Both the position numbers and the translations under genes were made by a program. A DNA stretch of 63,933 nt, counting the filler, from Rhabdomonas costata (lineage: Eukaryota): NCBI GenBank assembly GCA_019059605.1. It is 31 parts of 31 records of this genome, joined end to end, with 100 filler letters (N's around TTAATTAATTAA, not from the genome) between each part and the next. Parts side by side here need not be neighbours in the genome. Positions count along the whole stretch, not along the records: positions 22,754 to 24,718 come from JAHMHO010006911.1; positions 24,819 to 26,783 come from JAHMHO010006912.1; positions 26,884 to 28,848 come from JAHMHO010006913.1; positions 28,949 to 30,913 come from JAHMHO010006914.1; positions 31,014 to 32,977 come from JAHMHO010006915.1; positions 33,078 to 35,041 come from JAHMHO010006916.1; positions 35,142 to 37,105 come from JAHMHO010006917.1; positions 37,206 to 39,170 come from JAHMHO010006918.1; 23 more parts are not named here. One strand, written 5' to 3'. Of the stretch, positions 22,765 through 58,713 are shown piece after piece. Below the pieces are notes generated by a model. That model was not told where the DNA came from. It searched no databases and saw only the letters and a program-made list of their open reading frames with translations. Numbering within the stretch: position 1 is the stretch's first letter; each line of letters opens with the position of its first letter.

Positions 22765-24718
22765 GAGCGGAGGCTGATTGTCCAGGCTTACGGGGGCCAG
22801 GTTCCCGCACAGAGTGAGCAGAGTGAAAGAGAGAGAGAGAGTGTGTGTGTGTGTCTGGGTAAGTCAGAATGTGAGCGGGCCATTGAGGTGTCCTTGAACC
22901 CTTGGGGTGTCTTTGTCCTCAGACAGGCTTATCTCAGGCTCCTGTTGGCTCTTACGCAGGGAAAAGTTTGTGCTTGGGCGGGTGCAGCGTCCACAGCGAC
23001 CCAATCGGATCCAGATCACAAGTGCAAGTGTAGGGTAAATCAAAGGAAGGTAGGAGGGAGGCGGTTTTGACAGCATCGCCACCAGGACGCGCACCCAATG
23101 GTTGGGTGTTCCTTGTTAGGTGGTGCTCACTCCGACGGCTACGGGGATGCTGGGCTCCGTGGCGAAAGCTGAGAAACTTGCCGCGGAGATCCCCGACTCC
23201 TTCATGCCGCAGCAGTTCAAGAACCCCATCAACCCAGGCCCTCGCCCGCCCCCCCGGAAGTGTACCAACTACGAATTCTATGTCACGAAAACACTGCCAT
23301 CCTCACGGGCGGATATCATAACATGACAGCTCTGTGGCTTCATCAAAAATCATCACTGTTCTTGCTTCGGCGTCGACCAGATGACTAAGTCGGGAGACGG
23401 AAATTGCGCACATGCGCTTTTACATGTGAAAGATGCTGATGGTGATGACAAAGGAAGCTCGGAATTCATGCCATTGCGTGCTGGACAGTGCAACGCCGTG
23501 AAAACAGCACCTTTTCTATAATTAGGAGTGCTGAAAAAGCACGTGCACACAAAAACCAACGTTGATTTCGGGTTTGAATGGGTGGTAACCCAACGCGCTA
23601 ACCACTTTTTGCGGGGTCGCTCAGAGTGTCATTACCGCACCACGGGACCGGAGATCTGGGCGCAGACCGAGGGCCTGCTGAACTTCTTCGTGTGCGCCGT
23701 GGGCACCGGGGGCACGATGAGCGGGTGCGCGCGGTACTTCAAGGAGCGCAAGCCTACGGTGCACTGCGCCGCGGTGGAGCCCTCGGAGAGCCCCGTGCTT
23801 TCGGGAGGCCGGCCAGGCCCGCACAGCATCCAGGGCATCGGCGCAGGCATCCCCCTCGTCCCTGTCCCCACCTGTCACCGTGTGCTGTTCGGTTTGTGAG
23901 GCGAGGTTGCCACACCAGACACGCCATCGCCGCATGTTCCCCCAGTTAAACCTCCCTTGAATGTGTGGGTAGGTATCTGCCCTACGCTCTTGGGGGGTAT
24001 TGCTCAGGTTTCCCCTTTCACAGAACTTTCCGCAGCATCATGTGAAACAGTTGGAGGGAGGCGGACATCCCTGCCCCTTGTTGTGGACGAAGGGGGGGCA
24101 CTCGCGGAGGATTGGGACCCATTGCAGCGGCTGGTAGGGTACCCACAAAATAAAACGGAGAGTTAGATCTCATTGCCGGCAGTATCGAGTGGTGTGGTGG
24201 TGGCGGGGCATCTTGCCTGTCTTGGAACCTTTCGCCCCGGTTTTCCTTCCCTTTTTGCAGGCTACATCCCCGATGTTTGTGACACCACGCTGATTGACTC
24301 CGTCGTTCAAGTATGCTGGGCGCTGGGCGTTCTCAAAAGCATTGCTGTACTAGAGCAGTGTGAGTGGGTTCTTCAGAGGCTAGGATGCCCTTGCGCGCTC
24401 CTCCGTCGTTTACCAGTACCACTGGGAGAACAATGGAAGAAGGCATCCGCTGTGCACCTTCAGGGCCTGTGAGACGCTTCACTTGCTCTGGTGCCTTTTT
24501 TGCGCAACCTTTGGACGCGTCACACGTATGGAGACTTTCTCCGTGGGACAGGCGGGGATATAAGTCTCAACTTCTCCCTCCCATCCGCCATGTCCGCAGG
24601 TCTCCAGCTCGCAGGCCAACACAATGGCCCGGCGGCTTTGGCGAGAGGAGGGGCTGGCGGTGGGTGTCGCCGCGGGCGCCGCCGTGCACGCCGCGGTGGA
24701 GGTGGCGAAGGCCAACGA
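22765..24718 (+). CDS. cysK: cysteine synthase (O-acetylserine thiol-lyase), partial
   Basis: Exons ~22765-22800, 23120-23237, 23625-23846, 24261-24310 and 24600-24718. Motifs [62 protein letters not shown]. Introns 2 and 3 are GC-AG. Confidence 0.97.
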
Positions 24719-25017
24719 NNNNNNNNNNNNNNNNNNNNNNNNNNNNNNNNNNNNNNNNNNNNTTAATTAATTAANNNNNNNNNNNNNNNNNNNNNNNNNN
24801 NNNNNNNNNNNNNNNNNNGCAAAACACAGCCACAGCCACAGCCACAGCCACCCATCTCGACTTGCACTCTCTTCGCACTTCCAGTTCAGCATTCTTTAGT
24901 AACCACCCAGCAACTCGCCCACCGATGGGTGTAAAGTTGAAGGCATGCGGAAGACTAGCTGGTGGCTCAATCTCTCTTGCCCAAGCCCCTTTAAATCTCG
25001 GAGTAGAAACACACCAT

Positions 25018-25399
25018 CCCGCGCTTGTCCTGCGGCGCGGTGAAGGTGTGGTGGGTATAGAAGTAAGTCTCCGCCGGGACCCGCGCAACCTCCGCCGCGG
25101 CCTCCCCTCCCGCCGCAGCGGCGGGGGTCATGTCCAACCCTCGGGCCACTGTGGGGTGAAGGTCCGCTGGCGGAGTGCCCACAACCACCCCATCCTCATG
25201 AGCGGTAGGGCTGGGAGTGAGCTCTGGGATAGGGGTGACCTCCGATTCCCCCAGACCGGCGGCGCAGGTCTCGGGGGTGGAGGTTGCCAGGTCGGCCCGC
25301 GAAGACAGCGGGGAGTCCGAAAGCGTCATCACAGATTGGTCCGCACGATCGGTGAAGGAGAGGGTGGAGGTGTCCAGGGTGGCGGCGGTTGTCGTCATT
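25018..25399 (-). CDS. probable exon, Ser/Thr/Pro-rich hypothetical protein
   Basis: ttccag|A ATG...ATG|gtgtgt; about 127 open codons. Confidence 0.4.
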
Positions 25400-26090
25400 C
25401 TGGAAGGGCGGGCTTGGCAGGTGAGACTTTGAGTCGGAAAAGGAAGTGGAGAGGAGAGTGGGGTCTGCAGGGGAATTTGGGCAAAGGGGCTACCGCTCTT
25501 TTTTCTTCGGACGGACTGAGAGAGCTTGGTTTTGCAACGCGCGCGCGAAAGGAAAGAAAAGGAAAGAGGAGAAAAAAAGGAGGAGGAGGAAGAGATTGGG
25601 GTTGATGAAGAAGCAGAAGAAAAAAGTGATCAAAGCTGAGCAGAGAGGAGGACAGCCGTACCTTACCTTTTCTCTGGGTTTGGGGATATTCTCAGTCAGG
25701 GCTTCACGATAAACTTTTTGAGACATTAGGGCAGGGGTTCTTTCAAACGTTGGGCTTTGCTGTGCAGAGTTTTGTGCTGGTGGTGGTCGGTAGCCGTTCC
25801 GAACCCAACGTGGCATCACGGAATCCTTCGGGAGTTCAACAAGTTACCGCACAACCACCCTCTTGTCCCTCTCTTCGCGTTTCGCACACGCATGCACAGA
25901 TGCTGGTACTTCACTTGAGAATTTTTTTTGCACTGGTATGACAGGTTAAAAGTTACGCAGCTACCATATTCACCGCCCCCCTTTCTAGGTCGTCTCACCA
26001 GAATGCTGGGACATCAAAACTCTGACAACGAATGGTTGCCTCCCGTTCATGGGTAAAGCTCCGAACCAAAACGGCGCTCAGCAATTGGTC

Positions 26091-26402
26091 TCATTCCTTA
26101 CACACCCGTTCGTTGCCTTCACCACAGTGAGTTTGCGATCTCCTTGGGTGGTTCCGGCCTTTTCGGGGCTCCCTGAGCCTTCGAGGGCGCAGCCCAGCCC
26201 CCAGGCCAACCTCCCACCCAGGGAAGGGCCCCAGCCCTTGAAAGGGGTACGGACAGACCCACTGCAGCACCTTCTGAACCACTTCCATGGGCCACAGCCC
26301 ACGCACCCACAGCGCAGCCAGCACCGCGGCGACGATCTGCTGGTATCGCGGCGGGTACAGCACGGTCAATCCAGGACGCCATAGAGGGAGCATGGAGAAT
26401 AC
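26091..26402 (-). CDS. probable terminal exon with W.P...YP...VL...P.EVV..VL (SOCS/F-box-like helical) motif
   Basis: ccaccag|GTA: LWRPGLTVLYPPRYQQIVAAVLAALWVRGLWPMEVVQKVLQWV. Confidence 0.4.
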   Translation of the reverse strand, partial: VFSMLPLWRPGLTVLYPPRYQQIVAAVLAALWVRGLWPMEVVQKVLQWVCPYPFQGLGPFPGWEVGLGAGLRPRRLREPRKGRNHPRRSQTHCGEGNERVCKE

Positions 26403-27411
26403 CTGGTGGATATTTTGATGTCCAAACTCAAAATACAAAAAGTATTGGGTGAAAAACAACTGATAATAACTGAGATGAAGCATGGCACTTCGGTAATGTG
26501 TTTGACTAACCTTCCACCTTATTTTATGATTTGATTTGATTTTTCTCAACAGCGCCAAACTGAACACCAAAAACAAAACATCATATGAGGCCTCATATGC
26601 ATGTATGCATGTAGTTTGTTCAGTTCAAATTATGGCCCGCGTCACCTCAAAAAGAAGGAAAGAAGTGAGAAAACAAACGCGAAAAATAAGACATGCAAAT
26701 TCTCTCATGTGAGACTCTGAAAGAGCGCAAGTTGTGTGTTGGACCCTTGCACAGCCCACCCTATGACCCTTCAAATCACAACANNNNNNNNNNNNNNNNN
26801 NNNNNNNNNNNNNNNNNNNNNNNNNNNTTAATTAATTAANNNNNNNNNNNNNNNNNNNNNNNNNNNNNNNNNNNNNNNNNNNNAACATCTTCTATCTTGA
26901 CTCAGGAGATAGGTGCATTATCTTCTGTTATGTTCCAATACATGGACCAGACGTTCGCGCTGTACGGTATGTACGGTATGCACTGCAAATGGTGAGAGGG
27001 GGAGGGGGTCCCGAAAATGCACCAGCGCTAATATTTTCGTCCGCCTGCACCCCGGCGGCCACAGCAGTGCCAGTATTGACCTTCCCATATGGTGAAGGAG
27101 ACGAGAGAGTGGGAAGCCCTCCACACATCATACCAGGCAGGAGAGCAACATGTTCGTGACGCGGTCGGAGTGCCGCATGCTGTCCCGGCCTCGTACAGAA
27201 CCAATACTGAGGTTACCAACGCGTATACACGGCACGGAACAGTGCAAGGGACGCGTAAACAGATCATTGACCCCTTCCCCCCCTGAAAACATAAATTTAC
27301 ATGCCCAGAGCTCGCCTTATCTGCACTTCCACCAGCACAAGAGCCTCCTGACTCAAATATTCCAACCTTTACCCAGGGAACAAAGCAACCAAGTTATCCC
27401 CCCGCATATGC

Positions 27412-28782
27412 CTGTCGATCTCATCGAAGATGACGCAGTGCAGCTCCGAGCGATCCCCGCACACTGCGCAAAACAAAATCCCACGTTACCATAAGAGCTG
27501 GGGTGCCGCGCTTCGCACAAGCTCATCACTGGAGTTAGAAACCTTCAGAGCTGCATCCACCAAGAAGCAGAGCACTGTACAAGCCTGGTCCAGGACCTGG
27601 AAGGAATCATTTCTAACTCGCCCCCACAAACCGTTTTGAGACTACCCGCTTTGCCGCATCTCAATAGGGTCGGCATACTGCGACTCAGCGGGGGCGACGA
27701 GCATACTCGTGTTGGTACCCTTTCTCCAGCTGGCAAGTGCCAGCAGAATTCTTGTGTTAGTGACCAAGCTAACTTTAGAGAAGGTGGTGAAGATGCAAAA
27801 GAAGTTGGGTGCGCAGAGAACGAAAGCAGCACACATACATCTCCAGTCGGAAATGGCTGGGGCGAAAAGCTTCTTGATGTTCTTTTCGCTCTGAAAAACA
27901 CATATACACAGACAAGACCACATACATTAGGCTGCAGAAGGCTTCAATACCCACAACGTGACAACATACAAACTTCGAGGATGCCTAAGGGGGGTGGACA
28001 TGGGATTGTAATATGTGCACTCAATCGGTTGCCGTCCACCTGCAAACAGGACATGAGAGGTGTGCCAGCCATCTTTTTTACGTTGTGCGGTGCCCCATTT
28101 TCATGTTCAAGGATGACGATGAGATTGCTGCCTCTCTCACCTCCTTCGGACTGCCCTTAGTCTTCAGTCCATGCCATTTGGAGTGAGTTGGATTTCCAGA
28201 ACATGGGAGCATCACAAGAAGCTGCAGTGTGGATGGAGCAAAAAAAAACGTCGTCAAAAAACGGTGAAGCAAGCGGGGAAAGTCAGCACCTCGCCAGACC
28301 ACATGGACTCCACCTCGCTGCCGTTAACCACGACGACATTCCTTCGGGGAACCTGCAGCAACTCTGCCAGGCACCGCGCCAGCACGGTCTTCCCTACAAA
28401 CGGGAGGCGAAACCCCGAGAACGCGAACGAAGATACACCGACACCTGAAACTGACGTGCGGCGCTAACAGCCAATTGAAACAAATTCCTTCGCTGAGGTC
28501 TCAAAAGTCATCCATCAGGCAATGCATTGAACCTGGATTATCACCGCGCGTTTTTCACCTTCTTCGCATATGGAGATGCTTTGTTTCAACCCGTAAAAAT
28601 AACCGTCACCAGCGTTCATGTAGGTGCATAACAGCACTGAAGTGCATAAAGAAGGAACCAACAACCGGGCCTCCAAATCGCATTGCACACAGAAAAAAAA
28701 CGCACTGACTTACGCGCGCACGCACACCGTTGCCAGGCGGCCCATATAGCAACACGCCCCTGTGGTGCTTCACTCCAAACGC
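27412..28782 (-). CDS. NSF/Sec18-like AAA+ ATPase, D1 domain, partial
   Basis: Exons 28782-28728, 28393-28290, 27890-27839 and 27463-27412 give RGVLLYGPPGNGKTVLAR...VVNGSEVESMWSGESEKNIKKLF...SELHCVIFDEID. Walker A and B are present, with NSF-type VVNG.E and LHxxIFDEID. Confidence 0.9.
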
Positions 28783-31017
28783 CTTGCGGTCCACAGGAGA
28801 CAGCGCCCGAGAGCGAAGCACATCCCGCAGAAGCCTACCCCCCCCACCNNNNNNNNNNNNNNNNNNNNNNNNNNNNNNNNNNNNNNNNNNNNTTAATTAA
28901 TTAANNNNNNNNNNNNNNNNNNNNNNNNNNNNNNNNNNNNNNNNNNNNGTGTGCGGCTTCTGTTGTGCTATGGATAGTGCGTGGCTGGTGGTGTGTGCAG
29001 GGTTCCTGGTGACTTCGGGGTGTGTGTTGTCGGTGAGCTTGTTGGGTGCTGTGGATTCGAAGCGGTGGGTTGAAGTCGGTGGTGCATATGTCGGATTTGG
29101 CGTTGCTGTGTCTCGGTGGATTTTCCTTGGTGGTGTTGCTCGTAGGTATGTGGGGCCATAGTCTGATTGCTGGGTTGATGTTCCTTTGTGTAGGGTTGCT
29201 GTGTGAAGTGGCTTATCAACGTTTGCTGGTGGGGTTGCGTGGTATCTGTAGTGCTACTGGTGTGGGTTCTGTACTGTGGTGCTTGTGCTTGGCTAATGAT
29301 GCGTTTCCGTGTACGTTGCTGTTTTGGGTGGCAGTGTGTGCTGGGTATTCCTTGGTCTGTGTGATCCCGTGCTGTGGTGTGGCCTTCATTGTGCTTTCGG
29401 GGTTGTGTCTGGTTAGTGGTTTGTGGGTTTGGCATTCGCACTCTCGTCAGGTCCGTGTGGTTAGGTTAGTGTTGCGGTTGTGTGTGTGTGCTTAGTTGTT
29501 GTATCCATGATGTGTCTGCTGCGGGTTCGCTGTGTGGTCTCGAAGTTCTACGGCTTTGCACTCTCAAGTGTGTATTCATGGGTTGGTATCGGGTTGTTTT
29601 GGGGTTCTCGCGTGTACGTGTTCTTCTTCTTCTATGGGTTGTGGTTAGTGTTATGCTGTATCTGTAGGGATAGGTGTCGGAGTCTGTGTCTGTAGCTTAG
29701 GGTGTATGGTTATGATTGTAGCATTTGGTATGTGCTTGCTGTTGGTCTGTCTCACGTTGGTGGTGTTGGTGGTTGTGGTGCCGTGCGCTCGGTCTGTGGT
29801 TGCGGCTGTGTCTGTGCTTAGGTTGTGCTGTAGTGTCATGCGTAGTGGTTTTCATGGAGTCATTGAGTGGTTGTGTTTGGCTAATTGGGTTCTCTGTGGA
29901 GGTTCAGTGGCTGTGCTGTGCTTGTAGTGGAGTGGTGCTGTGCTTGTGTGTGCTTTTCCTCTTGTTGTGTGTTGAAGGGTCGATTCATGGTGTCGTGCTG
30001 TGTCTGTAGTGCCAGGTTGATGGTTTGATGGTGTTGGCATGGCCGGAGGGTTGGTGGTTGGAGGGTGTTGTTGGCTGTCAGTGAGTCGGAGTGTCTGCGT
30101 CTGAATTGAGGGTTTGCGTCGAAGCGTAATGGTCCATGTTGTGAGTGATGCTTATGACAATCTGAGTGACTCATATGCCAAGCTGCGATTTCTACCAGAT
30201 GCCTCTACCACTACAGTAACGCTAACCCTGCGACAGAGGTGAAGTTGGAGTGTAAGCGTAACCTGATGGCAAAGAAGCGATACATACCCCAAGCTGTTAC
30301 CGTTATTGCGCATATTCCTACACTGATGGTGATTTTTGTGATGCTGGTATTCCTGACGCAACGTGAGAGTTGAGAAGTGAGTAATAGTGACTCAGCATGA
30401 CTCTATACATTCCTACTCCCTACTAAGGATGGCTTCCTCGCTGCGCTCAGACCCATCATTTGTACCTACCATGTAGTTGAAGAACCCGTAACATTAAAAC
30501 TCCATCTAAGCGTAAGGGAGTGTTCTTCGCGTGGCTACGCCAAGGTCGGAGTGAACATTATGGGCCCTGATGTGAGGAAGGGACCATCACGAGAGAGGAG
30601 TGACAATAAATTCTTAACGGATGCCATCCTTCCTTCTATGTTTTCTGTCGATCACGTTCATACTCCGTGGATGTCTCTAACACACATTCCACTACGTACC
30701 CACTACTGTCACTTGTGGTGGTGGAGGGAACTATGAGTGAGCGAAAGCGAACCGTAGAATAGAAGAAGAGTCGTCACATTCGTCATCTTCATTGCCTCGT
30801 GTTACTCTCAAGTACAGTCGTCACACTCGCTCCTCTCACTGCGTTCGATGTCGCTTCTGTTACTCTGACGTCACAATCACACTCGTTACTGCGTTCATCC
30901 GATACCAAACACCNNNNNNNNNNNNNNNNNNNNNNNNNNNNNNNNNNNNNNNNNNNNTTAATTAATTAANNNNNNNNNNNNNNNNNNNNNNNNNNNNNNN
31001 NNNNNNNNNNNNNGGTT

Positions 31018-31164
31018 TTGGGTTGAAGGACAAGAATTGGAAGAAACCGAGGCTTCTGCGGCGCACGATAGGAGTTCCGCCTCGCTGGAACTGGCGTCAC
31101 ACGCAACTGAGGATTCCGAGACAGATGTCACAACGGGACAACAATGCCCGTCAGAGGAAGTCAT
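31018..31164 (-). CDS. N-terminus of the next tandem copy of the dual-specificity phosphatase
   Basis: ATG at 31164 (MTSSDGHCCPVVTSV...). 31018-31139 repeats 32856-32977 with one mismatch. Confidence 0.8.
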
Positions 31165-31825
31165 TTTTGGGTAACTATTTCATTAAAAAGAGGACAATAG
31201 CTAGATGCACAGGGAAGCTTTCCAATCAAAGGCCAAAAAGACAGCCAGGAACGGATCCACCGATCCGAAAAAGTCAAAATTAGTTAGCTCGCTTAAGTCC
31301 ATTCGAAGAGCAGTCCGACCTTTTTACACCGGGAAGGGCTCAAACAAAAATCACGAGGAAAGGAAAGGCACAGCACAACACTTACTTCAGGGGGACCATC
31401 CGACAGCCACAGCAGCAAAAGTAACGAAAGGTGGAAACAGAAACGCCAAGCAAGCAAGCAAGCCAAAAGTGATTAATTGAGCAGCAGACAGCTTCCGCGA
31501 TGTATCTGTGATTTTAATATGCTGGGATGACACCATCCGCAAGAAACGACTCCAAAAATGCGGGACGCCCATCTTCCGAAGGTTCCAGAACGTATCGTTT
31601 GCATTTGTATTTTGAGAAATCTCAGTAATCAACTTCACCATCAAAACCACGGGTATCGGGTAGGGGAGGATAACACCATGCTGACCACAGAAAGCGTAGT
31701 ATCACTGCGCAGGAAACGTGCGCGTGCAGCTTGCCCCCAACACAACGTTCTAGGCAAAGTGCAAATCAGCTGATCCAAACACAGCCGCTCAACAGACAGT
31801 GACAGAGGAAGAGGGTTGCAGAAAG

Positions 31826-32977
31826 TTACAGTGTATGCGACACTGAAGGCGTCAAGGCCGTGGTAGGCTCGGGTTGACCAACCAGAGAACGCTCCTCCTC
31901 ACTGGGCTCCTCCCCGCTTAGATCCACACCAGAGCTACGCAGCTCGCCCTGCAGCCGCACCAAGGCCGCCACAAAGCCCAAGTTGGGCCGCGCCAGCGGG
32001 CGCCTCTCCCGCACAAAAGCCATCGCCTTTGGGAAAGTCCACTGAAAGTGCCGCATCAGGTAGGCCACCGCCAGAGCCACTGAGCGGGAGCGCCCCGCGA
32101 AGCAGTGCAGCAAAACAGCGCCAGCCTCGGAAACTCGGAAGCCCTCGATGAAGTCAAAGACCTCTGGACGAGAAAAAAGTGGCAGCGGATCAGAAGGGCA
32201 ACGTATGAAGAAACAGGAAGCAGAGCTCAAAACACAGCACAGAAACAATGGCGAAGCAACGCACGCGGCCATAAAGACAAATTCCACGGAAGAGAGTCAT
32301 TTGCGACTCCTTCGCTGAGTGAACTTTTTAGTGAAGCGTCTTCTGAAACACGGGCTAACAGGGCAGGCACAGAACACCGATGAACACTTTAATTGCAAGT
32401 GCCGACCTCCTCAACAGGCAGTGCATAAACAGCTAGTTTACAGTTATCAGAAATTGTAGCACAGTGCTAGGACATTTACTTTACTCTCACTTCGATGGCT
32501 GACGGCTTGTGCCAAAGAAGTGACATTGATCCTGGCTGCACGTACACAACAAAACGTTCCAGCCTCCACCCAAGAGAAGCCTTATGATGCCTTCAAAATG
32601 TCGCGAGATGTCGTACGCGGGGTTGTCCGCAATCTCCAGCGCGAGCATCTTAACCCTACCACGCTTCCTTCCCGTCGATGAAGGCGTTACGCAGGCCGAG
32701 ATGACCCCTCTGACCTGAAGCTGCTCCAGCCGCTCTAAGTTTTCCGATGCTCCCAGGCTTCCCAAGTAGAGCAACCGGGGAATTAGACAGACAGGTTCCC
32801 GGTCCAGCCTTGCGCTGAAGTCTCTGGAGAGCAGCTTGGTCAGTTTTACTGATGCTTGGGTTGAAGGACAAGAATTGGAAGAAACCGAGGCTTCTGCGGC
32901 GCACGATAGGAGTTCCGCCTCGCTGGAACTGGCGTCACACACAACTGAGGATTCCGAGACAGATGTCACAACGGGAC
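31826..32977 (-). CDS. dual-specificity protein phosphatase (DSPc)
   Basis: Exons 32977-32591 and 32163-31826 (TAA), GC-AG intron. Motifs LYLGS, IADNP (general acid), VLLHCFAGRSRS, AYLM, RPNLGF. Confidence 0.96.
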
Positions 32978-33666
32978 NNNNNNNNNNNNNNNNNNNNNNN
33001 NNNNNNNNNNNNNNNNNNNNNTTAATTAATTAANNNNNNNNNNNNNNNNNNNNNNNNNNNNNNNNNNNNNNNNNNNNGTGGTGTGGGGAGCGGAGGGCTT
33101 GTCACCATCCTCGGCTTCCATAGCGACTTGCAACGACGGGGTTGCTTTCACAGTGCTCACGCAGGGATGCCTCAGAAGAGTAGACAGCTCACCAGTGACA
33201 AAATTCCCAGTGAAAAAGGGCTTTTGGAGAGAGACGAGCGCGCACAGCAGGATTGCCAGTGTGTGTACAAAAGCAGGCGAGTGGCGATTCCATTGAGGGA
33301 GTGATGTTCATCTGAATGTTAAATGAGCGGTCGTGTGAGTGGGGCTGATGTGTGGACCAAACCCGCAGCAGTTGAAGCAGCCCAAAGTCCAAACAGCACC
33401 AAGCATGTCTCCGTTGAAAAATAAGAAGGTGAGAGGCCAACGTGATACTTTCGGTCCGCTGATACCCGATGAGTATGAACTGCAAATGAACCCAAACTGA
33501 ACTTGAACCAGCCAGGTGTACCCACGCCGCCCCTTTGGTCTCAACAGCTCAAACATACTGTACAAAACAAAACCTGCAGTCAAAATGCTGAAACATGCGA
33601 CATCCCAGTTTTGAGTGATGGCCCTTATAAAACTTAGACTCCAAGTTTGGGTCCTACTACAGAGAC

Positions 33667-41236: not shown

Positions 41237-41424
41237 NNNNNNNNNNNNNNNNNNNNNNNNNNNNNNNNNNNNNNNNNNNNTTAATTAATTAANNNNNNNN
41301 NNNNNNNNNNNNNNNNNNNNNNNNNNNNNNNNNNNNGTGGGTGTTTTATGTGCTTAGGCTGCTTTATGTGCGTCTGTATGGACGGGTTCACAGAAACAGA
41401 AAGACCTCCCATGAACCCGTCCAT

Positions 41425-41567
41425 ACAGACGCACATAAAGCAGCCTAAGCACATAAAGCAGACGCACATAAAGCAGCCTAAGCACATAAAGCAGACGCAC
41501 ATAAAGCAGCCTACGCACATAAAGCAGACGCACATAAAGCAGCCTACGCACATAAAGCAGCCTAAGA
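41425..41567 (+). repeat. 33-bp minisatellite of alternating 15- and 18-bp subunits
   Basis: CAGACGCACATAAAG + CAGCCTA(A/C)GCACATAAAG, about 4 copies. Confidence 0.9.
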
Positions 41568-42857
41568 CGGAAACTAAGGATAGACCCAGCTTCGTCACAA
41601 TCCCAGGGTACCATTCTCATGCTGCCAGTGCCCCACGTCACGGGGCAATGTGTGTGTGTGGGTGGGGGGTACCTGAGCGGGACGCTGAGGTCCATCCACT
41701 TCCGAGCTTGCTCGCGGTGCCTGAAGATGTGCCGGTGCAGCTGCCTCAGGATGGCTCCGCCGTACAGCAGCCCCGCCAGCCCCCACCCGGAGAGGACCCG
41801 CTGCCTTGAGTGAAAAAAAGAGGGGGGGGGGATCAAAACTACCCTACAAGGGGTTACAACATTACCGTGGTCCCCCAGCAGGACCAGAACGCAGACCCCA
41901 CCACCTTCCCTTCCACCGAAATCACTCCTGCTGCCACCGTTACCTCCCATCACTCGCTCTCCTCCGCCACTACCCTCGCTCCTTTTCCGCAACCAACTCG
42001 GCAATCTGCATACTCAGTGGTCAGTGTGCCAATGTGCGGGGGAGGGGGGCAAAGTCAAGTGCTTAGAGCACTGCGTTCGGTGCTGTGGTCTGTTTTCGTA
42101 TCTGCGAGTCTTGTTTGTTGTTTCTTGTTTGCTTCTCCTCTCTGCTCTCAGAACATATAGGCTCCCGGGTACAGGAGGTTCCCAGTGTGGTCTCGGCCGG
42201 AGCAGCGCCTTTCTCTCTTCTCTCTTCTGGCAACCAGCTCAGACCTGGTGACAAAAAACAACAGCCCGGAGGGGAATCACCACCTCACTGATGGGCCCAA
42301 AAATGGTTGTTAAAATATGAAAAAAGAATCTGCGAGGTCGTGCGTTTCAAAATACTTCAGCTCATGCCCGCTCGATGGCCTTTTTGGCCAATCCTCCAGC
42401 TCCGTCCGCCCACCCCACCCGAGAACAGGCATTCACATATCTCAAGCAAAGGGTTCTGTCCGTAAGTTGCCGTGATCCTGTAAAGTCTCAGTGCATACAG
42501 CTGAGTACCTCAAGGAAGCCAATGGGCAGGGCAGAATCTTGCGCGGCGACGGCTTCGCACTTGACACTTATTCCGACACGACACTTATCCTCTGCTCTTC
42601 CGAAGATGAATCATACCTGGAGGTCATTTCCCTTTCCCGACCGCTATTTTGTGCACAGTCGGGATCGCCTGTGGGCAGGCTGTAGCATGCGTCAGAGAGG
42701 CGCCGAAAAAGGAAGAATGGGATTTTGCAGGCGCTGGCGAAGCATACATCCGGTTACTCGTGGGCACAAAAATACCCGAAGGAAACAGCACACTGCAGAA
42801 TAAATGGCCCCGGTGAGCGTAGGATTGCGATTTGTCCCTGCTTTATACCTTTGTAAG

Positions 42858-48279: not shown

Positions 48280-48895
48280 TCACTGGCGGTACGCTGGCGA
48301 CCTTGAGCGAGCCGAGCCACCTATTTTGCGAGTGAAAGTTTCCAGTTCCGCCCTTTTTCAGCTCCAATTCTTTGAGCTTTGAGCAAGCTCTACGCAGTCT
48401 GAGAAACAGAAACCTAACAGATTCAACCATGAGTACTACAAAGCAGTCCAACCAAAGTCCAACCAAAGTTCAACCAAACAGAACACAATTGTCATCTTCA
48501 GTATTTCTCGATCATAACAAACCAGCGCAACCTGGCCTACGCCGCCAGAAAAATACAACAGAGCAATATCCACTGTGCCAGATAGGCTAGCTACAGTGAA
48601 CCTCTTGATCACCTCTTGACCCAGCAAAAAAAAACTATGCACGTCATTTGCATACTTGTGGGCGAATTAATCATGGTTTGGGACAAGGGATACTGGGGGG
48701 AGCGGAGGACCTGTGGCCGTGCGGAAGGTGGAGTTGGGCGAGGGGTACTGCGGGGACCCCTGCTCGCTGGGAGAGCCCAGCACCGAGCTCCCACTCCGCT
48801 GGGCCTTCAGGGCGGCGCGGCGCTGCGAGCTCAAGCGGGCAGGGAAGAGCACAGGTATCCTGGAGCGGCCCGCGGCCCTGCTGCCTGACACCGAG
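48280..48895 (-). CDS. C-terminal exons of a Ser/Arg/Pro-rich hypothetical protein
   Basis: Exons 48895-48711 and 48320-48280 (TGA) are phase-1 compatible and GT-AG. Confidence 0.45.
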
Positions 48896-49624
48896 CTAAC
48901 AACAAACATGGAGGAAGTTAAGAGTTCAAGATTTCGACAGCCCCCCATTAGCTCCCCACCAGAAGCAACGTGCGAGGGAAGAAAATTCCATACTTGGGCC
49001 GAAGGGCCCACCGCTCAGCAGAAAAGGATGCGCGATGAGTGGTTTTCTGAAATACGATTGCAGTGTTAAGCGAGGGCTTCTAAGGACATTCGTCCGGCAA
49101 AAGAAGTCGAGGGTGGAGCCCCAAAAGTGGTGACCGCAGAGCTTGGTTGATGGTCCCACACAAATGAAGGTTGGTGGGCAAAATAGATACAGCAGGCCTG
49201 CCGAAACGTACGTGGCCGGTCCTTGTGATTCATAAATGCAAATGTAGATATGTAGATGTGTTGACTTAACCAAAGAAAAGCTATAAAAAGGTAAGCCTCA
49301 CAGCGGCCGGCTGATGTCTCCGTAGATTTTACCTACCTTTCAGCGCTTGCTCTGTGCATGTAAAGCAGGATACGGGCTGCTGTTGCGCACACACTTGTTT
49401 GCCCTGGCTTGTTTTGACCAAAAACTATCCAGCGTTAATTTTCCACCATTTTTTTTTTACAAAAGCTACCTATTTTATTTTTACAAAACACCACANNNNN
49501 NNNNNNNNNNNNNNNNNNNNNNNNNNNNNNNNNNNNNNNTTAATTAATTAANNNNNNNNNNNNNNNNNNNNNNNNNNNNNNNNNNNNNNNNNNNNGTTTT
49601 GTGGGTGTTTCGAGGGAGTTTACG

Positions 49625-49919
49625 GTTACCACTGGTAACAGAAAACTCCCTCGAAACACCCACGAAATGAAAAATTTGTGTAAGGGGGTAAGCTTTTTCA
49701 GTGCCCCCCCATTGATTGTTTTACATTGCAGCTGAAAACTAATCCTGGCTAAGGGCTTGCCAATGGCTGGGATATGGCCGGACGAGTTGGACAGCATTAT
49801 TATAGGGGCGAAGGCCAGTCCGCGCCGCGGCCGGAGCGGGCGGCTGGGGCGGGAACGTAACCTGGGGGACTGATACGACTTTATTTACTCCCATAGTAAA
49901 AATTGTTACCACTGGTAAC
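49625..49919. mobile_element. MITE-like dispersed repeat, copy B
   Basis: Bounded by the palindromic GTTACCACTGGTAAC at 49625-49639 and 49905-49919; core shared with copy A. Confidence 0.65.
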
Positions 49920-50119
49920 AAGCCTGATCAGAAACGCTACTAAGAGCACACCCTGAGTCGACTGATTCTCGACGCAGCAGACATGCGCCACGCTCACGCG
50001 GAAGGGTTCTGATTTCGACATGCTTTTTGACAGCACTGTTCCTGGTCCCTGGTGTCCGTGACCAGTGTGTCCGCGATGTTCAACTTTCGGCCTATGTCTT
50101 TGCTATCTGCATTTCTCAG

Positions 50120-51300
50120 GCGGACTACTTCGGGCCCACGATCAACTTCGCCGCCAGGGTGGAGTCCAAGGCCCTCGGGGGGCAGGTCCTGGTCAGCCAG
50201 CACGTTTTGGACCGTATCGGGGACGACCTGCGCTCGGAGCTCGTGCTGGGCAACGCCGGGCGGTTCACGTTCAAAGGCATCGCCGAGCCCCAGGAGTTGT
50301 ACACGCTCTGCCCACCGGTGTGGCGCTGCGCGCCCTGCGGTCTAATGTGACGTGCCTGTGTTTGTCCCTTCGCAACCATCTCTCCAGAATCGCAGTGTTG
50401 CGTGCCTTGCTTGTTCTATGCTGCTGACGTTGGTTCTATCCTTCTCTTCTCTCTTCTCCACCACATTCTCCATCCGTCACCACCCAACGCTTGTGATCCA
50501 TTTTCACCTGTTTCTGGTGCCTCCCGCCCCCCCCCCTCCCCTTCAACGACGCCATTTAGCCTGCAAGAGCACCTTGCCCTCGCTTGTGCTTTCTGCGATT
50601 GAATGTAATGATGTAATGACTCAGGGCTCCGGAATCAGAGAGTGGGTGCGCACTTGAATTGAAAGGGAAGTGATTGATGTTCTACCCTCATGTATACTGG
50701 CCTCATTCAGGATTTCCTCTCAGCTTCAATCAATGCATACATTCACGTGCACACACTGAGACAACAGGCAGATGCATTGTGAAAATAAGCGAAAACAGCG
50801 CGTAAACAAGGCCTACAGCTTGGGTTTGCCTTTTGCAGGCCCTCCGGTACCGGTCATTCCCGAAGGAAATCCAGGAGTTGCTCTGCAACCGCTGCAAAGG
50901 CCCCGCGACATGCCCGCGGTGTGACGGAGGGGAAACCATCCTGGCCAGGATGCGCAGCTCTACCGCCCACAAGGCCTGGGTGCCCTCCGCAGAGTCCGAG
51001 TTCGACGCCACGGATTCACCCAAGGTTTGTACCAATGGTCGTGCTTGTTTGTGCCAAAGGTACAGATAGATTGAAGCTCCAATGCTCAAAAATTCACCGC
51101 ATCACTTGTTGTGGACCACGTTTCATCACTTTCCAAGGGCAGTTAATGGGCAGAAATGATTGTGCCTCTTGTCATTAGAACCTCCCAGTATTCTTTTTCC
51201 AGCTGTCTTCTTTTCGATCGCAGCACATGGTTCTTAACTTGCCGCTTGCTTCCATATGCAACACTCGCAGGTCACCAGGCCGTTATCTCCACTCTCGTGA
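50120..51300 (+). CDS. adenylate cyclase (kinetoplastid-type class III), C-terminal part
   Basis: Exon 50120-50317 (DYFGPTINFAARVESKALGGQVLVS...FKGIAEPQELY), exon 50839-51024 (ALRYRSFP...CNRC..CPRC) and a possible last exon ~51271-51300. Catalytic N and R and the adenine-specifying D are intact. Confidence 0.93.
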
Positions 51301-52740
51301 GGAGGTGAAGGTACTGGATTTGAGGCATTCTCCTCAGCCGCCTCGCAACAAGCAACAAGTCAAAACCCACCGACTCTGCTCCGCACGTACCCCTTACGTG
51401 TTCACTGGGACTACCTTTCTCAGTTCAGTGGCCATGCCATCCAGAGTCCCTCTTGTGAACTGGCCTGTTTTTCTGCAGGCATATCTATACACCAATCGCT
51501 CGTCCTGAGTGCAGTGCTCCCCCTCCCTTCGTTCGTCCGCGCTATGTTGGTCATCAGCGNNNNNNNNNNNNNNNNNNNNNNNNNNNNNNNNNNNNNNNNN
51601 NNNTTAATTAATTAANNNNNNNNNNNNNNNNNNNNNNNNNNNNNNNNNNNNNNNNNNNNTTTTTGTTTTTCAAAACGTTTCTCAAACGCTCAAAAAATTT
51701 ACGTTTTATTATTTCCTCTTTTGCGACTTCAGGAATGTGAATTTCACCTTCACGTACACACCTGAAAAGTCTTTGCTGCCATCAATGCTGGCGACCGAGA
51801 GATTAGGTACAGCCTGAAGCAGTGCGGATACCACGTCGGGGCTTCTGACACCCTGCATCAAAAGTGTCAAATATGGACCTCCAAAGAGTTCCTGCGAAAA
51901 ATATAAGGTCGCAAAAAAAGCGGAGCTCGCATTTTCCCTTCATTTTACAGCTGGCAGGGACTGGCTTTTTCTTTCAATGCGATGGGCCGTCCTCAGCCAA
52001 AATCCCCCCACAGAATTGTGTCATTGAGCAAAAGACGAACGCACCCACGCATCCACCCACACAAATGGAATAAACAGGAAATTGTTCGTAATATCGTCCA
52101 GGTCATTTTTTGTTGCATGAACCTTCGGTTTTAAAGAAGGTTGGCAGCATTAGAATTTGGCTGGTCTGTTTTCGTGGTTCTGCCAGCACTGTGTGTTTAC
52201 AATTTCCAATTTTGCTCATTCAAATTAATGTTGGTTCATAATACAAAAGAGTCCAATGCGACATTGAAGTATTCACACAAGCTTGCCATGAACTCGGACG
52301 CACAAGAATCGTAATCCGGTTCACACACCACATCGGCCCAATGACGAATGTCCCTCAGCTTCTCGGAAGGAAAGAAGTTTTTCACCACGTCAGGCAGCGA
52401 GAATGACAATCGCTATAAAAAACACACGGCACATGACCATACAGCTGGACGCACGAAGCTTTTGTGACGCCACCATATTCATTGTTTTTCACTCCCTCGT
52501 TGTGGCGCCCTGAAACGTTTTCACGTTTTCTCAGGCACCTGAAAAGCCTTTTTCGCGCGATGTTACGTCAGTTCGGTGTCTGCGCTTTTGCAATAGCAGC
52601 TTCTGTTCTTGCAAACCAGCGAATTCTGGATGTGCTCTTAGGACCGACTTCTTCAAGTGAAAAAACCCAGGAAAAAGACCGCGCTGCACGGATTGGAGGC
52701 GGAGGGATGAGCAGAACTAGCCTGCAGTGAAACATTCAAC

Positions 52741-52987
52741 GGGTGCTGGTCGTCAAAATGCGTGTCCCCAGAACGGGGGCCGGAAGAGCGGGGCCTGAAC
52801 AGCGCTCCACAGCTCGCGCATCGGGACCAGTGCTGGCGCTCTGGTGCCTTCGAAGTGGGGACAGTAGTAATGGGCAATGCCTCACGCAACGCTGAGCCAC
52901 ACAAGGGACAAAGCCCGGGCGCACAGCTGCCGTGAGCAGGTGATGAGCCCACAGAGATGGCCCCGCGACGCGACGCTGGATTCGGAG
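52741..52987 (-). CDS. probable exon with a C4 zinc ribbon
   Basis: ccgcag|CT...; CPLCG-x~20-RCASCGALF. Confidence 0.45.
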
Positions 52988-54114
52988 CTGCGGGAAAGAA
53001 GAGAACCACAGAAGAAGCAAAGAAATGTGTGTTCGCATGATGCCTCATTTCCAGCCAACCTTCGGTGGTTGTGTCAAACCCGAAATTAATTCGGGTTTTT
53101 GCCCTGGGATTTCTGGTCCTCACGGTAACTGAATATTTTTGTTAGTCCTGTGAACACTTAAAAATCCCAAAAACCAAGGAACCTGTTGCCGTTGTTAACT
53201 TCAGGAGAAAATTGTGGGCAAGTGTACAGAAACAACAGAGAAAGACTTGCATCAAACGAATTTTGGCAACATAAAGAAAAACTCAATTTCAAAATCAGCA
53301 ATGCTGTCCGACCATCAACCCCACACACCACAACCACTCCATGCTACCCAAACGCGCGCACATCTTCCAACTCTGCTCCCCCAAAACAAATGAAGGAGAA
53401 CCAAATTATCAAAAAAATTTGGATTAAGTCCTGTAACATCCCGAGTGCCTGACATTTCGAGCAGAACTTTTTAGCTTATTTATGCTGTTCCTGTGATGCA
53501 CTCAGTTCAAAGTGTTGCTGTACTAGGTACTTAGTATTTTACCTGAATTTCATCACGGCAATTTCGAAGAATTGGTTCTGGTGTGCGGTGTGCACTCACT
53601 CTGTCTATGTTTCTCACAAAAAANNNNNNNNNNNNNNNNNNNNNNNNNNNNNNNNNNNNNNNNNNNNTTAATTAATTAANNNNNNNNNNNNNNNNNNNNN
53701 NNNNNNNNNNNNNNNNNNNNNNNTTTGTTGGTTGCCATCCGCATCCGAGCATCCCTCTGACCCGAGTGCGGGTAGACCCTTCGGTGGCATGCGGTCGTGC
53801 AGTCACATTCCCATTGCTGAGAAAGACATCATAGTTATGGGCAGGATGGGAGGTGGTTTCCTCAGTGACAGCTGTGCCTACAAAAGAGGCCGAGGTCCTT
53901 GAGGGTTGTCTGTGACGTCTGCTGTCCGGGCAGCTGTTTCTGTGATTCCCCGACCCAGCATGCCTTGACCTGTTATCGGAGCCTCAAAAGGACCCCCGCA
54001 AACCCGCAAAGGAGGGAGAGGGGCTGCTCCAAGGGAAGCGGGAGCTGTTACTGGAATTTTTTTTCGCGCTTTAGCGCTAAGTTTATCTGAAAGGTGGCAT
54101 CGGTTCTGTTTCAG

Positions 54115-54309
54115 CTGCTCACCAACGCGGGCCGGGAGTGCCTCACCAGCGACCCCACGGGACAGGGCTTCCCGTGGCGAGGAGTGCGGAAGAGCCGCCT
54201 GACAGAGTTTGTGCAGACGTACAACGTGTACCTGTGGATTCTTCTGATTGTGGTGGGGAGATGGGTGGTGACCTGGATTTGGGAGTTCTTGTGCTGGCTG
54301 TGGCGGTGA
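54115..54309 (+). CDS. tryparedoxin/nucleoredoxin-like thioredoxin C-terminus with transmembrane tail
   Basis: LLTNAGRECLTSDPTGQGFPW matches the family end motif (T..GR.....DP.G..FPW) and is followed by hydrophobic VYLWILLIVVGRWVVTWIWEFLCWLW. Confidence 0.72.
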   Translation: MLTNAGRECLTSDPTGQGFPWRGVRKSRLTEFVQTYNVYLWILLIVVGRWVVTWIWEFLCWLWR

Positions 54310-56227
54310 GAGCTCAGCACAGAAGACCCTCTCCATACCTGCTCCATTCGCTCTGCTTTTGGCATCGCACGGTGCGGAGTTGGTCTGAGATGAACGAAGG
54401 GAGGTAGACGTGGGGAGGAGAGGTTGTGGTGAGTCTTTGATCCCTCACTACTGCCATTACTCAGCTGCACTATGGTGGTGATCCGCGTTCTGCAGCGCCC
54501 ATTGCTTGCACACTGAGTACCTCCTCTTCCGTGTCGCGTCGGCAACTGCAACTTCCAGTAACTTCTTGGCGTGTGCGACGGGCCCTCTCTTTGTACAAAG
54601 CAGGAAGGGAGGTTTTTATATTTCCTGCTCCCAGTCTTCTGCTGGCCATGCTTTTTGTGGGCGCACTGGTTAACCTTGGGGCCACATGGTCAGCAATACA
54701 CCACCATTCACCATGACACTTCGAGCTTGTGCTGGCTGACATTGTGTGTGAATGGACTTGTATACCTGCTAATTCCGTGCAGGAACCACCCAGAAAACAT
54801 CTTACAGTGCATGGCTGTGCTAACAGCCCCCAGCTGCCATTTTTTATTTCATGTCTGCACAACAGTGCCATGCGGAAGATCTCTCCTTCCTCCCTTCCCT
54901 CCTGCACGCTGCAAGTTAGGCGTCACTCTCCACCCACCGCCCTTGCAGTTCTATTCTGGAGTGTCCCGGTTCAGTCAAGTTTGTTTTTTTTGAAGCTAGG
55001 AATACAATGCCCACAAAGAAAAGGGCGAGTGTGCCCAATGTTTTCCTTTGTTGTTCGTCTCTTTCTTGTTCAGAGTTGTGTGGAGTGAACCCCGCTTTCG
55101 TTTTGGGATTCTGCTGCCTTCACCCCCCGCTCCATTTCCGTCGATTTTATTCGGGGAAAGTCAGGAGACCGGTGGCGAGAGCTGGTGCATAGGAGATGGC
55201 GGTTGGGCAGACTCCCGAGGGCGATGGCTTACCTGCGGAGTCCTTCCCCGAACCGGCACTGAAGCAGCTCCTGACGGAGCTTTCATCCCGGTAGACAGTG
55301 CCACCAGCGCTACGCTTTTTTTTTGTGTCTGCTCTGCATGTGCCAACTCTGGTAGTGCGCAGGCTCTTGCCCACGTCTCCTCGTATTTTTGGCGAGGTAA
55401 GGTGAGGATTTATGAAATTTTTTTTGAGTTTATGGTGCTCTGAGATTTTTGCCGGACTTGGACAGGTTTCTGATCCTCTCTACTATGACTTACCTATCTG
55501 TCACGTACCTATTACTCTTTCGATATCTACTGTGACTTCTCTTGCTTCTTGAGGTTGAGTTGCGCCCGGTTTTTTCTTGTGTGTGCTTAGGTGTCTTCTT
55601 GAATCGCCACCCGTCCATCCTTTTCCATACCTTCCTCTTGATGTGCACACTTTTGTGCGCCTCCCCACTCACCACCCCACCCCACCCNNNNNNNNNNNNN
55701 NNNNNNNNNNNNNNNNNNNNNNNNNNNNNNNTTAATTAATTAANNNNNNNNNNNNNNNNNNNNNNNNNNNNNNNNNNNNNNNNNNNNCAATGAAAAGCTC
55801 GTCTGTCAGAGAGCATCGAGAGAACCGATGGGAGGGGGAGGGACACACCACTCGCTTGGTGCAAGCAAAGGGCATGAAAGGGCATATGGAAAAGTGGACA
55901 GGTCGCGGAGAAAGTAGGGTGTTGTGATTCGTATCTCAGTGTGCTGAGTGGGCTGAGCGGACGGAATGGTCATCCATATTGACCAGTTAGAGCATCAGTA
56001 CAATCCACCGACAACCTCAACTTCAATGTCACTCAACTCTGGAGCTAGCTCAGCGCAGCAAAGAAACCCTGCAATTCTCAAGCATCCACTGATGGCATTC
56101 GAAACTCGGTCACTGAACGTTACCGAAAGAAAAAAAATGTCAAATAAAACTGACTATGTTCGAAAAATGGGCTTCTTCAGCTCCATTTGCCCCCACCCCC
56201 TCTCTTCTTCTTCCGCAGCACACCGAC

Positions 56228-57341
56228 TTTTCGCAGCCCATAACGCGTAGCTCGACCAGCAGCTCCCCGTTCTGCTTTCTGAGACTCTCGTTCTGAATCG
56301 CGAGCTCGCGCATTTCTGAGCTGAGCAAATATGTGCAAGTAAGGGGAGAAACAAACGCTTCTTAACCAAAATTGCAAGCCTCTCTCATTGCCCGTGCCCA
56401 TGCTTCCTCGCAGGAAGTTCACTGATTGCAGCGCGGATTCCAGATACACACAACACCAAGAAAACTTGGAGAGAGCCCGTGGGCCCTCCGAAATCAGGGT
56501 TTCTGTGGTTTAGTTTTTTTTTGGGGGGGGTGCTTTGCCACTCAGCATTAAAAGGTCCAAATCACAGTGAAGGCATCGCACGGCCCAGAGATAAAAACGT
56601 ACCGAGGCAAAAACACTGACAAAAAGAGTACTTTGAAGATAGGAGGTCGGCCTCCAAGGAGCTCAACCGCTCCATGGCCCCCTGCAGCTCGCTTCTGGAG
56701 GACTCCGCCTCTGCAAGAGCGGCAGCGAGCTGGGACTGAGCCCCCTCCAGCTCCTGCCTAGCCACAGAAAGCAGCTGCCCCTCTTCCTCCTGCTCCTCCA
56801 CGTCACGGGAGTACGGAACGACTGCCTGCGCAGTACACAGAAGCACTGATGATGCATTAGGGAATTAGTTGTTGGATGAAACAGATTATTAAACATCGAT
56901 CAAGCACAACACGACGGAAAATACGAAGTAAATTTAATTGAACAATAATTTAATAGAAGAAAGGTTATCATAAAATCAGAACGCGACTAGGTGAAGATCC
57001 ACCTTGCGGTCGTTACTGTAAATTAAAAATGTAATAAGACCACAGCTGCTTCTTTGAAAAGCCGACAAGCGGATCGGGGATGACTCGTTTACGGGGTTCA
57101 GGCATGGCGAAATCGGGGGAAACTCACTGGCGAAAGGACGAAATCATCAGCAACTCTTCCAATAAATTAAACTGGATTGAAGGTTGAAAGCAACTGAAGA
57201 ACAATTGAACCACATACTAACCGAGCGATCCTCTGTGGCAGCAAGCTGCAGAGACTGTTGCAGACCGGCCACCTGGTCTAGGAGCATCTCCTTCTCCTGT
57301 ACCAGGGCGGCAATGACGCGCTGTGAAGTTTCCGTGTCGCC
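56228..57341 (-). CDS. coiled-coil protein, internal exons
   Basis: Exons 57341-57222, 56825-56632 and 56320-56228 splice in frame (GT-AG); E/Q/L/A heptad composition. Confidence 0.75.
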
Positions 57342-57887
57342 CTGCAAGGGAGAAAAAATTTCGGAAAAGATCGTATGGTTAACAATGCCACGCACATCCA
57401 CCGCCAACCTTGTATCCATACAGATGATTTCTGCCCAATGTCTGCATGCAAATATCGAAACCCCGTTTAAGATTGAAAACAGGGGGCATGTTTCATATTC
57501 TTTTCTGAAGACACAAAGGCTACAAAATCTTCGTGCAGCCACAACCTCTTGAACCGATCCAGGAAAGGGGGAAGAGCTGTGGGTGGAAAAGGGGTAACAC
57601 AAGCTGGCCTACTAAACCCGAAAAACGATCAGAGGAGAGGGACATTTTGTTACATTGCTGCCATTGTTTCACTAATAATTCCTTTTGTTCTTTTTTCTCG
57701 CCTCACGTGACGTGAGACGAAAGAACAACCACAGAAAAAGACACACCACCNNNNNNNNNNNNNNNNNNNNNNNNNNNNNNNNNNNNNNNNNNNNTTAATT
57801 AATTAANNNNNNNNNNNNNNNNNNNNNNNNNNNNNNNNNNNNNNNNNNNNGTGTGGGTGTGTTTGGGGGGTGGGGGGGGGAGTGCAC

Positions 57888-58713
57888 ATGGTCATCCAGC
57901 TTGCAGATCTTCTTCACGGTGCGGGTGTCCTGAAGCTTGGAGGCGGCCTTACGCTCCACTGCCAGGACGACACAGTCCTTCCCCCGAATCGCCACCGCAG
58001 TGGCCCCTGCCCCACACAGGAGTAAACCAAAAATTCAAGCCTTGCTGTTCTTCATCTGGCATTTTTATTTGTTTTTGCACTTTCTTTTGCGCGCTGGTAA
58101 TATTGTGGGACTGGCATTTTTGCATCAAAATGTAAGTGAGCATGCACTATTTTAGTTGCTACAAAAACGACGGTTGTAGCCACAGGGAAATGCGAGACAG
58201 AGAGAGAGAGAGAGAGAGAGGGCGAGAGAGGCAACGCAAGTGGAACAGGGCTCCATCATTTCGTCTATCCTACCCGATTGCCCCTGCCCAAGCTCGCAAC
58301 AGGCATGCCAACTTTTCCTTCCTCGAAACATGGCCCATTGCTCAAGATAATTCTGCCCTTCTAAACGTATGTTTTGCAAACTCAATGGACTTCGCGGTCA
58401 ATCCCTGCCACAATTGGAGTAAATACACATTAACATCAAAGGTAGACATTGGGTGGAAATTGAAGATCTCTCACTTTCGCCTGGGGAAACAGGGATCTCC
58501 ATTTTTTGTGTTAAGTTTCAAATTTTTTTTTTGAGAATTCTGCTTTCGCATTCGTACGAAAATATGGGATCCCGATAGAGTTGAAAAACGCGGGTGGTGA
58601 GGGGGGAGGGAGGGAGGACACGAGCCTTTCTTCACCGCCTCCATGGCGTACTCGACCTGAAGCAGGTGGCCATCAGGCGAGAACACTGTCAGGGCGCGGT
58701 CGTAGCTCGGCAT
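57888..58713 (-). CDS. PSMA7: 20S proteasome subunit alpha-4 (alpha type-7), 5' part
   Basis: Exon 58713-58626 ([29 protein letters not shown]) and exon 58006-57888 ([40 protein letters not shown]). First intron is GC-AG. Confidence 0.97.

Follow-up and report, generated by a model that had tools for sequence, protein, structure and literature searches.

Conventional introns of euglenids are described as following a GT/C-AG or GT(GC)/AG rule (PMC8219788; PMC11170887; PMC4770533). In Euglena gracilis, 659 GC-AG introns have been reported beside 11,527 GT-AG and about 16,150 nonconventional introns (PMC11170887), while for human the figure for GC-AG introns is about 1% (PMC3167603). Here we analyse a window of 63,933 bases from the genome of the euglenid Rhabdomonas costata, in which six introns start with GC: two in a cysteine synthase gene and one each in genes for a dual-specificity phosphatase, a proteasome alpha-type subunit, an ABM-domain protein and, as a probable case, an AAA/NSF-like ATPase. 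We consider it likely that these six GC dinucleotides serve as 5' splice sites and that the introns behind them are GC-AG introns of the conventional, spliceosomal type in R. costata nuclear genes. Introns of this kind are known, the GT/C-AG rule of euglenids being already published.

The closest described counterpart is the GC-AG class of E. gracilis (PMC11170887), which resembles the introns analysed here in its GC-AG borders, its weak donor logo, its GTGTG-like GT sister class and its pyrimidine-rich 3' end, and also in length, with an average of 522 nucleotides (nt) there and 205-619 nt for the GC introns here. The two differ in share, which is 6 of 18-33 donors here and 659 out of 12,186 for the conventional introns of E. 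gracilis, and in the donor positions that stand out: G at +5 is prominent in the E. gracilis GC donors, whereas here it is A at +3, T at +4 and the exonic AG. In animals, plants and fungi, GC-AG introns make up about 1% and have the form AG/GCAAGT, where the slash marks the exon-intron boundary; they are alike in having U2-type borders and neighbouring positions that are strengthened against the C at +2, in our case the exonic AG. In contrast to them, no AAGT occurs at +3 to +6 here, and the frequency here is at least 10 times higher. Euglenid nonconventional introns belong to the same lineage, may start with GC and have short flanking direct repeats, but the introns described here show no end-to-end pairing and no CAG/CTG motif, and at the 3' end have a pyrimidine tract before a canonical AG. 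Dinoflagellates use GC and GA donors and have a high share of non-GT donors. Unlike in that unrelated lineage, none of the 18 verified donors here is GA; a dinoflagellate origin was rejected.

The window is not a single locus. It consists of 31 unrelated contigs of 1955-1987 base pairs (bp), about 1.96 kilobases (kb) each and ordered roughly by length, which are separated by identical spacers (Table 1). Because the contigs are unrelated, each gene fragment stands alone and any feature that spans a spacer is an artefact; the span 23238-58625 proposed in a first-pass annotation of this DNA crosses 17 such linkers. Each of the six introns or donors claimed there does lie inside a single contig, and the six are spread over five independent contigs. 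Its GC content of about 50% and its short contigs fit the published R. costata draft, for which 51.6% GC and, as N50, 1.2 kb are reported (PMC8219788). For the search of coding regions we used a Pfam scan of 588 stop-to-stop open reading frames (ORFs) of at least 60 amino acids (aa), out of 789 ORFs of at least 50 aa. Recognisable families were found on about a dozen contigs, and short exons were missed, since ORFs below 60 aa lay outside the scan.

All six GC dinucleotides were found at the positions first claimed for them, both by direct reading and by scripted re-extraction (Table 1). What is shown is where the GC dinucleotides lie, that no GT could serve in their place, and that independent proteins derived from transcripts have the spliced frame. 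The proteins in question carry RCo identifiers, which denote R. costata transcripts and proteins from a proteome predicted from the transcriptome and not from the genome (PMC8219788). Peptides from 14 exons were compared with the transcript proteins (EukProt) in two pools, limited to proteins longer than 113 aa or 77 aa, so that short protein fragments were possibly missed. Four new RCo proteins matched window exons, namely those of the phosphatase, ABM, proteasome and WD40 genes. Their identity with the exons points to R. costata or a very close relative as the origin of the DNA.

Three of the GC junctions, those of the phosphatase, proteasome alpha and ABM genes, are read straight across by independent transcript proteins that match at 100%. 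For the phosphatase, P0121 (RCo040295) agrees at 112 of 112 residues over exon 2. In exon 1 the contig encodes 129 of its residues, 10-137 and the one at the junction codon, and 128 of these agree. The protein crosses the junction through one junction codon with no insertion. For the proteasome subunit, which has Pfam Proteasome_A_N and Proteasome matches, P0124 (RCo008337) is identical over all 69 residues of the two exons in the contig and its junction is uninterrupted. For the ABM gene, P0122 (RCo038259) is identical to the exons over 38/38 and 61/61 residues, up to position 61183. Past this point it continues with 38 residues that are found nowhere in the window, and the genomic read-through differs. 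Since P0122 leaves the genomic reading after 61183, the intron must begin at 61184, with the bases GCATGC; a shift by one base would give a CA start, and a GT is impossible there. P0122 thus confirms as a non-GT donor a site that had been listed as probable.

The two junctions of the cysteine synthase gene, which has a Pfam PALP match on the exon downstream of intron 1, are covered by a related protein. P0002 (RCo009036, 333 aa) is identical to the middle exon (73/73 to 75/75). It reaches only 87% and 75% identity in the neighbouring exons and is for this reason, as judged from the sequences, a paralogue or allele of the gene in the window. P0002 is uninterrupted at both GC junctions, as are other CysK homologues, and at intron 2 all of them continue across the GIGAG / (F/Y)IP motif. 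A search with the cysteine synthase peptide retrieved this known paralogue only and no exact transcript protein. In the AAA gene, the exon upstream of 27411 aligns to residues 320-334 of NSF in a weak PDB match (E = 0.5), and the downstream exon was assigned by eye from the spacing between Walker B and sensor-1. Searched singly, the exons around this site gave no Pfam match and the one weak PDB match only. We therefore take five GC donors as firm and the AAA/NSF-like donor at 27411 as probable.

If splicing used the closest GT that lies downstream and in phase, the product would gain 8 and 9 codons in the two cysteine synthase cases, 7 in the phosphatase, 2 in the proteasome subunit, 17 in the ABM gene and 10 in the AAA gene. 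The range of 2-10 inserted residues given in the first-pass annotation agrees with these values for the four cases it held to be firm. As the transcript proteins carry no insertion (P0121, P0124, P0122 and the paralogue P0002), use of an alternative downstream GT is excluded at their five junctions. Taken together, the five complete introns have GC at +1 and +2, AG at the 3' end and no usable GT for the same product.

Table 1. Coordinates of GC donors, GT comparators and an example of the spacers in the R. costata window.
Feature	Coordinates	Strand	Phase	Length	Detail
Cysteine synthase (CysK/PALP) GC-AG intron 1	23238..23624	+	1	387 nt	exon end 23237 (CCAG)
Cysteine synthase GC-AG intron 2	23847..24260	+	1	414 nt	exon end 23846 (GCAG)
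Dual-specificity phosphatase GC-AG intron	32164..32590	-	1	427 nt	GAAG/gc at 32590; Pfam DSPc
Proteasome alpha-type subunit GC-AG intron	58007..58625	-	1	619 nt	AAAG/gc at 58625
ABM-domain gene GC donor, second intron	61184..61185	+	0		CAAG/gc; acceptor beyond contig end 61869
AAA/NSF-like ATPase, probable GC-AG intron	27207..27411	-	2	205 nt	ACAG/gc at 27411
CysK intron i0, GT-AG comparator	22801..23119	+			sequence and P0002
Second CysK GT-AG comparator	24311-24599	+			sequence and P0002
AAA gene, three complete GT-AG comparators (span 27464..28727)	28727-28394, 28289-27891, 27838-27464	-			
AAA gene, further GT donor	27133-27132	-			read by eye
PSMD3/Rpn3, three GT-AG comparators (span 15039..16091)	16091-15938, 15824-15482, 15369-15039	-			
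Alpha carbonic anhydrase fragment, GT-AG comparator	22038..22469	+			ends pair strongly
ABM gene intron 1, GT-AG comparator	60661..61000	+			P0122
Proteasome gene, further GT donor	57887-57886	-			P0124
Linker example	24719..24818	.		100 bases	1 of 30 identical spacers (N44-TTAATTAATTAA-N44)

To compare the GC donors with the GT donors of the same DNA, we counted a donor as verified when it was supported by a transcript protein or by contiguous homology. This gave 18 donors, 12 GT and 6 GC, in a sample that leans to the genes flagged in the first-pass annotation. By gene, GC donors make up 2 of 4 in cysteine synthase, 1 of 5 in the AAA gene, 1 of 1 in the phosphatase, 1 of 2 in proteasome alpha, 1 of 2 in the ABM gene, 0 of 3 in PSMD3 and 0 of 1 in carbonic anhydrase. 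The first three exons of PSMD3 map contiguously to residues 5-47, 46-85 and 78-121 of PDB 5vhf_V, and a Pfam Rpn3_C match supports the fourth. In the AAA gene, the exon at 28257-28463 has a Pfam AAA match and the remaining ones were identified by eye.

The donors are indeed unlike AG/GCAAGT, as had been claimed: AAGT is absent from +3 to +6 in all six GC donors (0/6). It is also absent from the verified GT donors (0/12), and the GC donors lack it because the consensus of the host is not GTAAGT. The local GT donors instead follow GT-R-T-G, with R at +3 in 9 of 12, T at +4 in 7 of 12 and G at +5 in 8 of 12. This matches the GTGTG consensus reported for the 11,527 GT-AG introns of E. gracilis, which pairs with U1 (PMC11170887).

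An exonic AG precedes every GC donor (6/6), in line with the first-pass annotation, and only 4 of the 12 GT donors (Fisher p = 0.013). In addition, four of the six GC donors read GCAT, one letter from the local GTAT(G). The claim that a compensating consensus is lacking is contradicted by these two features, and the exonic AG is the kind of compensation that GC donors usually show for a weaker +2, here located in the exon. The further proposal that 5' sites are defined here mainly by an exonic AG/GY fails, with 8 of the 12 GT donors having no AG. As for phase, the four cases first held to be firm are all phase 1, but this regularity loses its significance once the AAA (phase 2) and ABM (phase 0) donors are counted, which leaves 4 of 6.

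Mechanistically, euglenid conventional introns rely in this reading on a short donor consensus, GT-R-T-G and not GTAAGT, and tolerate a C at +2. The contact lost at +2 would be offset by the exon-final AG (6/6) and by the retention of A at +3 and T at +4 (4/6), giving AG/GCAT. The introns would then be removed by a U2-type spliceosome, and the compensation may operate through pairing of the exon side to U1 or U5.

The excess of GC-AG introns over the approximately 1% of model eukaryotes, as first noted, is borne out in this sample, with 6 GC donors among 18-33 and a binomial probability of at least 6/33 of 9e-7 at a rate of 1%. The larger denominator uses the annotation's own count of about 27 GT donors, 12 of which were verified. 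At the E. gracilis rate of 5.4%, the probability of at least 6/33 is 0.008 and that of at least 6/18 is 0.0003, and in its share of GC donors the sample clearly exceeds the E. gracilis value. It is possible, if the less likely case, that this excess reflects sampling fluctuation or ascertainment, R. costata having a GC rate of about 5% as E. gracilis does and the window having been noticed for holding several such donors. The four GC donors first held to be firm, taken with the 27 GT donors only, give a probability of at least 4/31 of 0.08 at 5.4%; the four verified introns that had not been flagged (PSMD3 and carbonic anhydrase) are all GT; and the reader behind the first-pass annotation selected what to report. 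Likewise, in a published study in which six R. costata genes were surveyed by hand, 29 of 29 complete introns were GT/AG (PMC8219788 section 7). The main text of that paper gives no split of GT and GC, the term 'gc-ag' having 0 occurrences in it, and our literature search on R. costata introns found no GC share for the species in the parts of the sources covered. What speaks against fluctuation is the full set of six GC donors, with the probabilities of 0.008 (n = 33) and 0.0003 (n = 18) given above, and their distribution over five independent contigs.

It is very improbable that a change in the U1, U5 or U6 small nuclear RNA (snRNA), specific to this lineage, has made AG/GY the main determinant of the donor. 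The high GC share in the sample would fit such a change, and one diplonemid has an alternative U1 whose 5' end is altered (PMC12621601), so that variant U1s do exist in Euglenozoa. However, the GT donors of the window do without the exonic AG (only 4/12 have it) and keep an intronic consensus like GT-R-T-G, of the kind that pairs with E. gracilis U1. The snRNAs described for E. gracilis are ordinary U1, U2, U5 and U6 (PMC10679874), and an Rfam search of the window gave 0 matches. A modified U1, U5 or U6 is not needed to explain the GC donors, and the need for a relaxed, new splice code is not supported, GT/C-AG being already the rule for euglenid conventional introns.

Several points weigh against the assignment of the six donors to conventional introns. 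An AG stands on both sides of the junction of every GC intron, which allows three placements of the boundaries with the same mRNA, GC-AG being the only canonical one among them. GC-AG ends are also on record for one nonconventional intron of a euglenid (PMC4770533), so the borders alone do not prove the mechanism. The transcript support is at the protein level only, exact for three junctions and from a paralogue for two; for cysteine synthase this paralogue is not identical, and the AAA case consists of a weak PDB match and an exon assignment by eye. Finally, G at +5, the only prominent position in the otherwise weak logo of E. gracilis GC donors (PMC11170887), is present in only 2 of 6 GC donors here.

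These points bear on a reading that we hold to be very unlikely, in which the introns are nonconventional or intermediate euglenid introns that can merely be read as GC-AG, with a structure-dependent and possibly spliceosome-independent removal. Euglenid nonconventional introns have variable borders and pairing ends. They often start with GC (PMC4770533), seven candidates are reported in R. costata itself (PMC8219788), and short direct repeats (AG...AG) flank each GC intron here. Their signature has been given as complementarity between +4..+6 and -8..-6 (PMC4770533) and, in E. gracilis, as CCAGG at +3..+7 with CCTG at -9..-6 (PMC11170887 section 10). In the five complete GC introns, by contrast, pairing between +4..+6 and -8..-6 amounts to 0-2 of 3 positions, the same range as in ten GT introns, and neither the CCAGG/CCTG nor the CAG/CTG motifs were found. 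Folds of the terminal 10+10 nt reach 0 to -6.3 kcal/mol in the GC introns and 0 to -5.2 kcal/mol in 9 of 10 GT introns, the exception being carbonic anhydrase at -13.4 kcal/mol, and folds of the 30+30 nt ends gave z-scores of 0.2-0.6 when compared with shuffles. The AG that ends each of the five complete GC introns is preceded by 11-17 pyrimidines in 20 bases; the corresponding range in the 10 complete GT introns is 8-15. In terminal fold energies and z-scores, which are like those of the GT introns, and in pyrimidine-rich 3' ends, then, the GC introns behave as conventional introns do.

A T-to-C sequence error at +2 can practically be dismissed. The published R. costata draft, possibly the source of the window, does come from amplified DNA at 10-20x coverage (PMC8219788), but it is not credible that six independent errors should all fall exactly at the +2 of a donor and always behind an exonic AG.

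Two other classes of intron were considered and rejected. The U12-type consensus is RTATCCTT at the donor and TCCTTRAY at a branch site near the 3' end. By eye the donors are unlike RTATCCTT; the one at 23847 (gcatcccc) is partly similar, and its 3' region is without branch adenosines. A related diplonemid is described as lacking U11, U12, U4atac and U6atac and as having 'a few' GC-AG introns (PMC10161547). For an introner or repeat family, the only match was a 23-nt microsatellite between one GT and one GC intron, and no sequence was found in common among the GC introns or between them and the rest of the window.

Some observations on the genes themselves are worth recording. The cysteine synthase copy (22754-24718, + strand) is a mosaic relative to P0002: one exon has 75/75 identical residues, the others 87%, 75% and about 64% identity, a pattern that points to gene conversion or to a family of several copies. 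The phosphatase gene forms a tandem repeat, at 31018-31164 and 31829-32975 on the - strand. Downstream of the first copy, at a distance of about 660 bp, begins a second one, whose first 49 codons agree 100% with P0121; the full copy differs from that protein by one residue. An unnamed ABM protein of 137 aa (P0123), which is not in the window and comes from an assembled contig of 929 bp, is 80-87% identical to the window gene; from this level of identity, a close relative of R. costata is present in another public data set.

The GT-AG intron of carbonic anhydrase, with its strong terminal fold, is a candidate for the conventional/intermediate type of euglenid intron. The string CCG/GTGTGGCG of its donor recurs at about 50318-50328, after an exon with a cyclase domain, and may be a further GT donor. 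In the last exon of the WD40 gene, P0125 is identical over residues 371-432 save one residue near the end. The pooled searches, with their length floors of 113 and 77 aa, returned no RCo protein for the carbonic anhydrase, cyclase, F-box and bromodomain-like ORFs, for two unannotated ORFs, or for AAA, PSMD3 and CysRS. Elsewhere in the window, the contig at 28949-30913 is of low complexity with a strong strand skew (GC skew 0.19, AT skew -0.28), its ORFs being rich in C/V/L on one strand and in T/H/P/Q on the other, and a tandem repeat at 41357-42013 gives reiterated ORF translations of LLYVR type on one strand and of HIKQ type on the other.

In summary, the odd splice code first proposed for this DNA was a false lead, cleared up by the GT/C-AG rule already known for conventional introns in euglenids, and only the high frequency of GC donors in the sample is notable. 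A more far-reaching idea, which we regard as doubtful, is that in the primarily osmotrophic R. costata GC donors would make up at least 15% of conventional introns (3-6 times the share in E. gracilis), carry an AG/GCAT signature and be largely excluded from highly expressed housekeeping genes (0/29 in the published survey against 6/18 here). Such a distribution could reflect a change in donor recognition specific to the lineage, for example a second U1 variant as in a diplonemid. If the AG/GCAT pattern and the share hold genome-wide, these introns would offer a natural series for the study of how the spliceosome tolerates a C at +2. Gene predictors for euglenids, in any case, should freely allow GC donors.

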